Part shown: in pieces, positions 2,231 to 30,228 of the stretch | How positions within the stretch are numbered: the stretch's first letter is position 1 | How the letters are laid out: each line of letters opens with the position of its first letter | Assembly (NCBI RefSeq): GCF_003334785.1 | Contig: NZ_QOWV01000001.1 | Length of the DNA stretch: 64,000 nt | Direction: 5' to 3' (one strand) | Source of the DNA: Escherichia coli | GTDB lineage: Bacteria > Pseudomonadota > Gammaproteobacteria > Enterobacterales > Enterobacteriaceae | Made by a program: the position numbers and the translations under genes | The notes under the pieces: model-generated | Told to the model about the DNA's origin: nothing | Databases searched by the model: none | The model's input: the letters and a program-made list of their open reading frames with translations, nothing else

Positions 2231-2657
2231 TCAAATTCTCCCGTCATTATCACCTCTGCTACTTAAATTTCCCGCTTTATAAGCCGATTAAATGATGAAT
2301 AAACGCCCCTGTTAATGAATATCTGGCATGTTGTACTAAAAATCGATGTTTTGCTTTGACAATCCCCTGGTGTTTTGCGAAAACATTCGAGGAAGAAAAA
2401 AAACAGTATTCTTATATGCGCATAACCATGCATGTAAATACCATGTTTACCGTGCTAGTGAAATCTACGTATGGCGTGGACAGACGCCATTCGTGATGTC
2501 GATAGCTGCCACAAGGCAACGGTCTTCTCACCGTAGACCCAGGCATTGCGCGCCGTGAATCTTCATGATTTCGGTCTATCGTGACGGGTAGCGACTCTGA
2601 ACAGTGATGTTTCAGGGTCAGACAGGAGTAGGGAAGGAATACAGAGAGACAATAATA

Positions 2658-3152
2658 ATGGTAGATAGCAAGAAGCGCCCTGGCAAAGATCTCGACCGTA
2701 TCGATCGTAACATTCTTAATGAGTTGCAAAAGGATGGGCGTATTTCTAACGTCGAGCTTTCTAAACGTGTGGGACTTTCCCCAACGCCGTGCCTTGAGCG
2801 TGTGCGTCGGCTGGAAAGACAAGGGTTTATTCAGGGCTATACGGCGCTGCTTAACCCCCATTATCTGGATGCATCACTTCTGGTATTCGTTGAGATTACT
2901 CTGAATCGTGGCGCACCGGATGTGTTTGAACAATTCAATACCGCTGTACAAAAACTTGAAGAAATTCAGGAGTGTCATTTAGTATCCGGTGATTTCGACT
3001 ACCTGTTGAAAACACGCGTGCCGGATATGTCAGCCTACCGTAAGTTGCTGGGGGAAACCCTGCTGCGTCTGCCTGGCGTCAATGACACACGGACATACGT
3101 TGTTATGGAAGAAGTCAAGCAGAGTAATCGTCTGGTTATTAAGACGCGCTAA
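2658..3152 (+). CDS. lrp: Leucine-responsive regulatory protein (AsnC/Lrp family)
   Basis: Track ORF 2604..3152 trimmed to ATG 2658 (MVDSKKRPGKDLDRIDRNILNELQKDGRISNVELSKRVGLSPTPCLERV...), 164 aa with N-terminal HTH. Divergent from trxB across a 544-bp intergenic region. Confidence 0.95.
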   Translation: MVDSKKRPGKDLDRIDRNILNELQKDGRISNVELSKRVGLSPTPCLERVRRLERQGFIQGYTALLNPHYLDASLLVFVEITLNRGAPDVFEQFNTAVQKLEEIQECHLVSGDFDYLLKTRVPDMSAYRKLLGETLLRLPGVNDTRTYVVMEEVKQSNRLVIKTR

Positions 3153-3192
3153 CACGGAACAGGTGCAAAATCGGCGTATTTTGATTACACTC

Positions 3193-3208
3193 CTGTTAAT
3201 CCATACAG
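3193..3208 (+). promoter_or_regulatory. LexA (SOS) box candidate upstream of ftsK
   Basis: CTGT-taatccat-ACAG matches the CTGT-N8-ACAG LexA consensus, 79 bp upstream of the ftsK start. ftsK is known to have an SOS-inducible (dinH) promoter. Confidence 0.6.
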
Positions 3209-3286
3209 CAACAGTACTGGGGTAACCTGGTACTGTTGTCCGTTTTAGCATCGGGCAGGAAAAGCCTGTAACCTGGAGAGCCTTTC

Positions 3287-14966: not shown

Positions 14967-15000
14967 AACCGGGGTTTCGGCCCCGGTTCTCTTTTATTTC
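14967..15000 (+). terminator. Intrinsic terminator of dmsABC
   Basis: aaccgggg-tttcgg-ccccggtt hairpin followed by tctcttttatttc. The T-tract overlaps the last codons of convergent ycaC. Confidence 0.8.
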
Positions 15001-27517: not shown

Positions 27518-27715
27518 CAGTAAAAACATCGGCTTTTTGCTAATAATCCGAGAGATTCTTTTGTGTGATGCAAGCCACATTTTTGCCCTCAACGGTTTTA
27601 CTCATTGCGATGTGTGTCACTGAATGATAAAACCGATAGCCACAGGAATAATGTATTACCTGTGGTCGCAATCGATTGACCGCGGGTTAATAGCAACGCA
27701 ACGTGGTGAGGGGAA

Positions 27716-28804
27716 ATGGCTCAAATCTTCAATTTTAGTTCTGGTCCGGCAATGCTACCGGCAGAGGTGCTTAAACAGGCTCAACAGGAACTGCGCGACT
27801 GGAACGGTCTTGGTACGTCGGTGATGGAAGTGAGTCACCGTGGCAAAGAGTTCATTCAGGTTGCAGAGGAAGCCGAGAAGGATTTTCGCGATCTTCTTAA
27901 TGTCCCCTCCAACTACAAGGTATTATTCTGCCATGGCGGTGGTCGCGGTCAGTTTGCTGCGGTACCGCTGAATATTCTCGGTGATAAAACCACCGCAGAT
28001 TATGTTGATGCCGGTTACTGGGCGGCAAGTGCCATTAAAGAAGCGAAAAAATACTGCACGCCTAATGTCTTTGACGCCAAAGTGACTGTTGATGGTCTGC
28101 GCGCGGTTAAGCCAATGCGTGAATGGCAACTCTCTGATAATGCTGCTTATATGCATTATTGCCCGAATGAAACCATCGATGGTATCGCCATCGACGAAAC
28201 GCCAGACTTCGGCGCAGATGTGGTGGTCGCCGCTGACTTCTCTTCAACCATTCTTTCCCGTCCGATTGACGTCAGCCGTTATGGTGTAATTTACGCTGGC
28301 GCGCAGAAAAATATCGGCCCGGCTGGCCTGACAATCGTCATCGTTCGTGAAGATTTGCTGGGCAAAGCGAATATCGCGTGTCCGTCGATTCTGGATTATT
28401 CCATCCTCAACGATAACGGCTCCATGTTTAACACGCCGCCGACATTTGCCTGGTATCTATCTGGTCTGGTCTTTAAATGGCTGAAAGCGAACGGCGGTGT
28501 AGCTGAAATGGATAAAATCAATCAGCAAAAAGCAGAACTGCTATATGGGGTGATTGATAACAGCGATTTCTACCGCAATGACGTGGCGAAAGCTAACCGT
28601 TCGCGGATGAACGTGCCGTTCCAGTTGGCGGACAGTGCGCTTGACAAATTGTTCCTTGAAGAGTCTTTTGCTGCTGGCCTTCATGCACTGAAAGGTCACC
28701 GTGTGGTCGGCGGAATGCGCGCTTCTATTTATAACGCCATGCCGCTGGAAGGCGTTAAAGCGCTGACAGACTTCATGGTTGAGTTCGAACGCCGTCACGG
28801 TTAA
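27716..28804 (+). CDS. serC: Phosphoserine aminotransferase
   Basis: 362 aa [26 protein letters not shown]...; class V aminotransferase. Confidence 0.96.
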
Positions 28805-28823
28805 TGCCGAAATTTTGCTTAAT

Positions 28824-28858
28824 CCCCACAGCCAGCCTGTGGGGTTTTTATTTCTGTT
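28824..28858 (+). terminator. Terminator-like hairpin between serC and aroA (partial terminator/attenuator)
   Basis: ccccacag-ccagc-ctgtgggg 8-bp GC-rich stem followed by TTTTTATTTCTGTT, 17 bp before the aroA ATG. Confidence 0.7.
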
Positions 28859-28874
28859 GTAGAGAGTTGAGTTC

Positions 28875-30158
28875 ATGGAATCCCTGACGTTACAACCCAT
28901 CGCTCGTGTCGATGGCACTATTAATCTGCCCGGTTCCAAGAGCGTTTCTAACCGCGCTTTATTGCTGGCGGCATTAGCACACGGCAAAACAGTATTAACC
29001 AATCTGCTGGATAGCGATGACGTGCGCCATATGCTGAATGCATTAACAGCGTTAGGGGTAAGCTATACGCTTTCAGCCGATCGTACGCGTTGCGAAATTA
29101 TCGGTAACGGCGGTCCATTACACGCAGAAGGTGCCCTGGAGTTGTTCCTCGGTAACGCCGGAACGGCAATGCGTCCGCTGGCGGCAGCTCTTTGTCTGGG
29201 TAGCAATGATATTGTGCTGACCGGTGAGCCGCGTATGAAAGAACGCCCGATTGGTCATCTGGTGGATGCGCTGCGCCTGGGCGGGGCGAAGATCACTTAC
29301 CTGGAACAAGAAAATTATCCGCCGTTGCGTTTACAGGGCGGCTTTACTGGCGGCAACGTTGACGTTGATGGCTCCGTTTCCAGCCAATTCCTCACCGCAC
29401 TGTTAATGACTGCGCCTCTTGCGCCGGAAGATACGGTGATTCGTATTAAAGGCGATCTGGTTTCTAAACCTTATATCGACATCACACTCAATCTGATGAA
29501 GACGTTTGGTGTTGAAATTGAAAATCAGCACTATCAACAATTTGTCGTAAAAGGCGGGCAGTCTTATCAGTCTCCGGGTACTTATTTGGTCGAAGGCGAT
29601 GCATCTTCGGCTTCTTACTTTCTGGCAGCAGCAGCAATCAAAGGCGGCACTGTAAAAGTGACCGGTATTGGACGTAACAGTATGCAGGGTGATATTCGCT
29701 TTGCTGATGTGCTGGAAAAAATGGGCGCGACCATTTGCTGGGGCGATGATTATATTTCCTGCACGCGTGGTGAACTGAACGCTATTGATATGGATATGAA
29801 CCATATTCCTGATGCGGCGATGACCATTGCCACGGCGGCGTTATTTGCAAAAGGCACCACCACGCTGCGCAATATCTATAACTGGCGTGTTAAAGAGACC
29901 GATCGCCTGTTTGCGATGGCAACAGAACTGCGTAAAGTCGGCGCGGAAGTGGAAGAGGGGCACGATTACATTCGTATCACTCCTCCGGAAAAACTGAACT
30001 TTGCCGAGATCGCGACATACAATGATCACCGGATGGCGATGTGTTTCTCGCTGGTGGCGTTGTCAGATACACCAGTGACGATTCTTGATCCCAAATGCAC
30101 GGCCAAAACATTTCCGGATTATTTCGAGCAGCTGGCGCGGATTAGCCAGGCAGCCTGA
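28875..30158 (+). CDS. aroA: 3-phosphoshikimate 1-carboxyvinyltransferase (EPSP synthase)
   Basis: 427 aa [35 protein letters not shown]... Confidence 0.96.
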
Positions 30159-30201
30159 ATGAACAACGGGCAATAAATAGCCAAATCTTTCTTTATCAAA
30201 A

Positions 30202-30228
30202 CGTCGGCACATTGTCGGCGTTTTTTTT
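30202..30228 (+). terminator. Intrinsic terminator of serC-aroA operon
   Basis: RNA-level hairpin CGUCGGC-ACAUU-GUCGGCG (7 bp including two G.U pairs) followed by UUUUUUUU. At DNA level the arms look like a direct repeat. Confidence 0.6.

Follow-up and report, generated by a model that had tools for sequence, protein, structure and literature searches.

The element at positions 28824-28858 of the Escherichia coli DNA analysed here is very probably a Rho-independent terminator within the serC-aroA operon, constitutive in its action and only partial (leaky). It forms a statistically significant structure that is conserved in a strand-specific manner as RNA, and it is accompanied by neither an internal promoter signal nor an antiterminator. 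Because the terminator sits inside an operon, it must be leaky. A leaky terminator between serC and aroA has already been part of the E. coli literature since the 1980s-90s; what is new here is the comparative sequence evidence only, comprising covariation, a G·U bias and a conserved interruption of the U-tract among 79 Enterobacteriaceae species.

Gene context and anatomy of the hairpin

The 64-kb window, i.e., the whole stretch of DNA that was analysed, is part of the E. coli chromosome, and a 501-nt segment round the hairpin matches all complete E. coli genomes searched (5426/5426), many of them at 100% identity. The first gene of the operon, serC, which encodes phosphoserine/phosphohydroxythreonine aminotransferase, occupies positions 27716-28804 on the plus strand, with its TAA stop codon at 28802-28804. 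The distal gene, aroA, which encodes EPSP synthase, lies on the same strand at 28875-30158. Both genes were assigned from the list of open reading frames and the RefSeq annotation, which for serC was that of identical E. coli DNA. The spacer between them is 70 nt long, is 100% identical to positions 958742-958811 of K-12 MG1655 (929937 is added to a window coordinate to obtain the NC_000913.3 coordinate) and carries no annotation in the RefSeq records. Among 5435 matches to the serC-aroA junction, five come from records that carry a plasmid label, and two copies are present in a few genomes.

In the 3′ direction the gene order in the window is aroA-ycaL-cmk-rpsA, and the serC-aroA linkage has been described as the remnant of an older gyrA-serC-(pheA/hisHb/tyrA)-aroA-cmk-rpsA supraoperon (PMC1173090). 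According to a 2025 study aroA is cotranscribed with serC, and targeting of the serC leader by GcvB makes the serC and aroA mRNAs drop jointly (PMC11878033). A consensus scan reveals no sigma-70-like promoter on the plus strand between 28029 and 29511, so that both the 3′ two-thirds of the serC gene and the stretch from the hairpin to aroA are free of such a site. Upstream of serC, the same type of scan gives a candidate operon promoter, ATGATA-17-AATAAT, at 27624-27652 on the plus strand (a 9/12 match), and a CRP-like sequence, TGTGA-N6-CCACA, can be read at 27565-27580. These two sites could plausibly correspond to the CRP-controlled promoter that has been published for serC.

The element reads CCCCACAG-CCAGC-CTGTGGGG-TTTTTATTTCTGTT. 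Its hairpin (28824-28844, plus strand) starts 19 nt past the serC stop codon, following a poorly conserved 5′ flank at 28805-28823, and consists of the 5′ arm CCCCACAG (28824-28831), a 5-nt loop CCAGC (28832-28836) and the 3′ arm CTGTGGGG (28837-28844), all on the plus strand. The two arms pair through eight Watson-Crick pairs, six of which are G-C, and constitute a perfect 8-bp inverted repeat in the DNA. The stem is followed without gap by TTTTTATTTC, of which the U-tract TTTTTATTT (28845-28853, plus strand) is interrupted by an A at its sixth position and is the expected release site for terminated serC transcripts. Further downstream on the plus strand, the purine-rich sequence GAGAGTTGAG (28862-28871), located 4-13 nt before the aroA ATG, is the probable ribosome-binding region of aroA.

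A 39-nt RNA segment containing the hairpin folds with an energy of -14.1 kcal/mol (z = -3.27), a stability that is reached by 0 of 200 dinucleotide shuffles, and in the consensus scan the hairpin is the strongest terminator-like site between 26.5 and 31.5 kb. The 8-bp GC-rich stem and U-tract that a preliminary description had placed at 28824-28858 are thus confirmed by the sequence, the consensus scan and the fold, and the end at 28858 indeed lies 17 nt before the aroA ATG. Its placement between two co-transcribed genes likewise agrees with the annotation of the reading frames as serC and aroA and with the cotranscription stated in PMC11878033. The element displays the sequence and structural characteristics of an intrinsic terminator: a G+C-rich hairpin with a stem in the range of ~5-14 bp and a short loop, a U-rich tract of ~7-9 nt within 0-2 nt of the stem base, and a location 3′ of a gene on the strand that is transcribed, combined with a structure that is selected at the RNA level.

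A second intrinsic terminator, AAAACGTCGGCA-CAT-TGTCGGCGTTTTTTTT, is found by sequence and fold at the distal end of the operon (30198-30228, plus strand). With its upstream A-tract and uninterrupted run of eight T residues, this distal terminator looks stronger than the internal one, which has no upstream A-tract and a U-tract broken by an A at position 6. As a consequence of these two features, the efficiency of the internal terminator is not readable from its sequence.

The number of comparable sites in the window was used to assess chance. Terminator-like sites, defined by a perfect stem of at least 8 bp with at least six G-C pairs, a loop of 3-8 nt and at least five T residues in eight, occur 11 times on the two strands of the 64-kb window (about seven distinct sites), as against 0.225 times per dinucleotide-preserving shuffle. 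A chance origin does not explain the serC-aroA hairpin. The element has a single match in the window when up to three mismatches are permitted, and a median of one place per E. coli genome; as a single-copy element it is not a REP/BIME or other dispersed palindromic repeat. The window-wide control scan also brought up perfect G+C-rich hairpins at 14967-14988 and 50854-50875 that are terminator-like on both strands, and which are candidate bidirectional terminators.

Conservation across the Enterobacteriaceae

The conservation of the element was analysed at the best 80 loci from a SerC protein scan of 100,044 species genomes. These loci all belong to the Enterobacteriaceae, encode SerC proteins that are 84-99% identical, and represent Escherichia, Salmonella, Citrobacter, Enterobacter, Klebsiella/Raoultella, Kosakonia, Kluyvera, Cedecea, Buttiauxella, Siccibacter, Mangrovibacter and other genera. 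At all 80 of them aroA is located directly 3′ of serC, and the 77 spacers that were extracted measure 64-85 nt. The distance from the serC stop codon to the hairpin is confined to 14-22 nt in all species aligned.

In an alignment of 79 sequences, the eight stem pairs are standard in 99.1% of the cells, and compensatory changes affecting both sides of a pair are present at five of the eight pairs (43 cells), including changes from A-U to G-C at the fifth and seventh pairs. The observed covariation is not reached on any measure in 500 shuffles, and sliding the 3′ partner by one to three columns lowers the pairing to 43-59% of the cells. Although the 79 species possess 20 distinct stem sequences and 57 distinct loops, the mean folding energy is still -14.6 kcal/mol. 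The T-run always begins at the base of the stem; its first five nucleotides are all T in 57 of the 79 species, and at least six T residues are present within the first eight nucleotides after the stem in 73 of the 79, with the consensus TTTTTATT.

Conservation is unevenly distributed over the spacer. The majority fractions among the 79 species amount to 0.88 and 0.92 for the two stem arms and 0.91 for the T-tract; in the loop they drop to 0.69 and in the 5′ flank to 0.59, and the purine-rich probable ribosome-binding region of aroA has a majority fraction of 0.87. The retention of stem and T-tract while the loop and the 5′ flank drift has the signature of an intrinsic terminator acting in plus-strand RNA. 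Non-Watson-Crick cells in the stem are G·U in 31 cases and A·C in one, and this strong excess of G·U over A·C means that pairing is selected in the plus-strand RNA, and not in a DNA palindrome or an antisense transcript. The comparison thus indicates that the arrangement of serC, terminator and aroA is maintained across the whole family Enterobacteriaceae.

Most genera other than Escherichia have a U-rich sequence, TTTTTTTCAT, just 5′ of the stem (alignment columns 25-34, corresponding to window positions 28814-28823), and Escherichia has TTTGCTTAAT at the same position. Since the flank is U-rich and lacks the A-tract that is often present upstream of terminators, the site is unidirectional.

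The aligned sequences also differ at the start of aroA (alignment columns 96-114). In Mangrovibacter, Cedecea, Buttiauxella and relatives (loci L051, L058, L065-L071, L074, L076-L078 and L082) the start reads ATGCTGGAATCC instead of ATGGAATCC, with a CTG at the position of the E. coli ATG and a new ATG located 3 nt upstream, resulting in an N-terminal extension of one residue. In Siccibacter, Atlantibacter and loci L066 and L079 the start reads ATGCAGGAATCC. One of the contigs in the set, CACSKA010000002.1 (L030), is labelled 'Chryseobacterium sp. 18061', and encodes a SerC protein that is 89% identical to that of E. coli, followed by a serC-terminator-aroA spacer of the Enterobacteriaceae type. 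It closely resembles a contig of 'Citrobacter sp. 18056' (L022) from the same project; mislabelling or contamination of the Chryseobacterium record is probable.

Of 5427 E. coli records, 4074 share an identical spacer, and in the three variant records that were examined the hairpin is unchanged, with the substitutions confined to the 5′ flank. The spacer is disrupted in only about 3 of the 5427 records. In one strain, P31_YH1_02.21 (NZ_CP085063.1, L083), a copy of IS200C is present directly after the U-tract of both operon terminators, at L083 positions 2546-3253 and from 4634 onwards; the insertion points correspond to window positions 28852/28853 and 30228/30229. The junctions read GGGGTTTTTATT abutting GTGCACAGAAAACCCCCAGC at the internal terminator and GGCGTTTTTTTT abutting GTGCACAGAAAACCCCCAGC at the distal one, which suggests that the 3′ side of intrinsic terminators is a target of IS200C. 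At the right end of the internal copy, a hairpin followed by ATATTTATTT is formed anew immediately 5′ of aroA, placing the aroA gene of this strain behind extra terminator-like hairpins.

Probable termination at the hairpin and alternative explanations

In vivo termination at the hairpin, and its efficiency, are points that we infer from the features described above or take from earlier reports. RNA polymerase would start upstream of serC, pass the serC stop codon and, some 20 nt beyond it, synthesise the G+C-rich hairpin, followed by the U-tract. Folding of the hairpin in the RNA exit channel would coincide with occupation of the active site by the weak rU:dA hybrid, and the majority of the complexes would free a monocistronic serC mRNA ending in UUUUU(AUUU), the 3′ end of which would also be shielded by the hairpin. 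A minority of the polymerases would continue into aroA, which would thus be expressed by read-through, and would halt at the stronger terminator at 30198-30228. From one promoter, the cell would thereby obtain serC message in a fixed excess over that of aroA, a ratio that would suit a high-flux enzyme of serine and pyridoxal phosphate synthesis as opposed to an enzyme of the shikimate pathway that is in lower demand.

These expectations accord with earlier work on the operon. Duncan and Coggins reportedly sequenced the 'mixed-function' serC-aroA operon in 1986 (Biochem J) and are said to have noted the terminator element. Man, Pease and Winkler (J Bacteriol, 1997) reportedly established by RNase T2 protection that 80-90% of the serC (pdxF) transcripts are single-gene mRNAs, and are said to have explained these mRNAs by probable Rho-independent termination in the serC-aroA interval; the cotranscripts reportedly end at another Rho-independent terminator, located downstream of aroA. 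In the same work, regulation by CRP-cAMP and Lrp was reportedly found at initiation in the conditions tested, with both transcripts changing together. The lowering of aroA relative to serC that was proposed in the preliminary description should hold, in view of the covariation among 79 species, the cotranscription of the two genes and the reported proportion of single-gene serC transcripts. None of the full-text papers that were searched describes the serC-aroA terminator.

The alternative that survives best is a regulated attenuator, in which read-through would vary with conditions, by means of an antiterminator, the position of a ribosome near the end of serC at its stop codon, an sRNA acting together with Hfq, or NusA/NusG/ppGpp, and would adjust the AroA:SerC ratio. 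An antiterminator or other competing fold is absent from the minimum-energy and centroid folds of 28700-28856; the hairpin is still predicted in a sequence extended upstream by 125 nt of serC coding sequence, and no alternative partner is found in this 3′ coding region. The 19 nt between the serC stop codon and the stem is too short for a leader ORF, and none is present upstream of the stem. Neither an antiterminator or sensing domain nor a leader ORF with regulatory codons, as would characterise a regulated attenuator, is therefore found, and Rfam gives no matches in the region of 26.5-31.5 kb at E values up to 1. In addition, no part of the spacer is less conserved than the 5′ flank, and the regulation reported by Man et al. 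(1997) is exerted at initiation, through CRP and Lrp. On the other hand, a terminating ribosome would come close to a hairpin that starts 19 nt past the serC stop codon (14-22 nt in all species), the break in the U-tract (TTTTTATT), which is itself conserved, could be the mark of an efficiency that is tuned and modulable, and serC is a target of GcvB (PMC11878033). Taken together, these observations make a regulated attenuator improbable.

The spacer was also considered for control of aroA translation. In the minimum-energy fold of the E. coli spacer the terminator stem is extended by pairing of the 5′ flank with the ribosome-binding region of aroA. Sequestration of the Shine-Dalgarno sequence by the flank was nevertheless rejected, as the pairing probability across the 79 species is 0.19, versus 0.20 for shuffled flanks, which equally argues against a regulated attenuator of this kind. 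A weak local hairpin, UUUCUG/UAGAGA, is present at window positions 28851-28866, in which the distal part of the U-tract pairs with the purine-rich ribosome-binding region of aroA. Across species, the mean pairing probability of the GAGAG motif is 0.74, and its partner is mostly nearby U-rich sequence, not the 5′ flank. This pairing probably follows unavoidably from the juxtaposition of U-rich and purine-rich sequence.

With no antiterminator, leader peptide or Rfam family, the element reads as a constitutive partial terminator, and it looks like a fixed divider of transcript levels and not like a condition-sensing switch. The preliminary description had also proposed the hairpin as a candidate point of differential regulation, a proposal that does not find a basis in an antiterminator, a leader ORF, a conserved 5′ flank or an Rfam family. 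A plain terminator leaves two features unexplained, namely that the interruption in the U-tract is conserved and that the distance from the serC stop codon is kept within a narrow range of 14-22 nt. Both features are compatible with selection for a particular, incomplete efficiency. The same two features, the interrupted tract (UUUUUAUU) and the narrow stop distance, underlie a further reading in which the terminator is a tuned and modulable valve, with read-through depending on the ribosome that terminates at the serC stop codon or on NusA/NusG/ppGpp. We consider this reading a long shot; if it were true, the AroA:SerC ratio would link the capacity of the aromatic pathway to translation status.

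Less likely still is that the hairpin acts only in RNA stability or processing, as a block to exonucleases after endonucleolytic cleavage of the serC-aroA transcript, so that processing, and not termination, would be the source of the serC-only RNAs. Protection of an mRNA is a property of any stable 3′ hairpin, and the flanks of this one are U-rich and single-stranded, resembling sites of the RNase E type. The curated Term-seq tables of Adams et al. (2021), which cover growth in LB to OD 0.4 and 2.0 and in M63 glucose, contain no entry naming serC or aroA, and list neither a 3′ end at 958770-958809 nor a Rho-dependent region there; these tables hold only the dominant ends, 882-1175 per condition, so that the absence is weak negative evidence against termination at the hairpin. 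The lack of a dominant end in this one dataset would fit a stability element. However, a pure exonuclease barrier does not need a T-run at its stem, whereas at least six T residues in the first eight nucleotides are kept in 73 of 79 species, and the complete canonical anatomy of a terminator is present.

That the perfect 8-bp inverted repeat is a protein-bound palindrome in the DNA (an operator or recombination site) or a chance repeat is scarcely credible, since the 31 to 1 ratio of G·U to A·C reflects strand-specific RNA pairing, on the grounds of which the operator reading was rejected, the half-sites change by compensation into 20 stem variants without preserving a recognition motif, and a single-copy hairpin of which 0.2 are expected per window shows covariation that 0 of 500 shuffles match.

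Biological meaning and comparison with known systems

As a leaky terminator, the element would explain how one promoter can serve two pathways of very different enzyme demand, i.e., the synthesis of serine and pyridoxal phosphate, in which SerC takes part, and the synthesis of chorismate, which involves AroA, the target of glyphosate. Stoichiometry that is set by a leaky terminator within an operon would have a clean textbook example here, and the operon has been so understood for decades. In practice, when aroA or serC expression is engineered, or the polarity of insertions in serC is interpreted, it should be taken into account that most transcription is expected to stop at this terminator.

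The closest known system is the terminator of the E. coli K-12 serC (pdxF)-aroA operon, which has the same locus, the same sequence and the same proposed role, with most transcription stopping after serC. The two elements are identical, and we take the hairpin described here to be the intercistronic Rho-independent terminator of that operon. The rplL-rpoB attenuator and the rpsU-dnaG terminator T1 are constitutive intra-operon partial terminators of E. coli. Like the serC-aroA element, they consist of a hairpin and a U-tract between co-transcribed genes, and make the stoichiometry unequal under a single promoter, with no ligand being sensed. They belong to other operons and share no sequence with the serC-aroA element; a further difference is that serC and aroA function in different biosynthetic pathways, within a mixed-function operon. 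The leader attenuators trpL, pheL and hisL resemble the serC-aroA element in having an intrinsic terminator upstream of a biosynthetic gene. In these systems, however, the terminator is combined with a leader peptide rich in regulatory codons and with mutually exclusive antiterminator and terminator folds, whereas the serC-aroA element has no leader ORF in its 19-nt flank, no alternative fold and no match to an Rfam leader.
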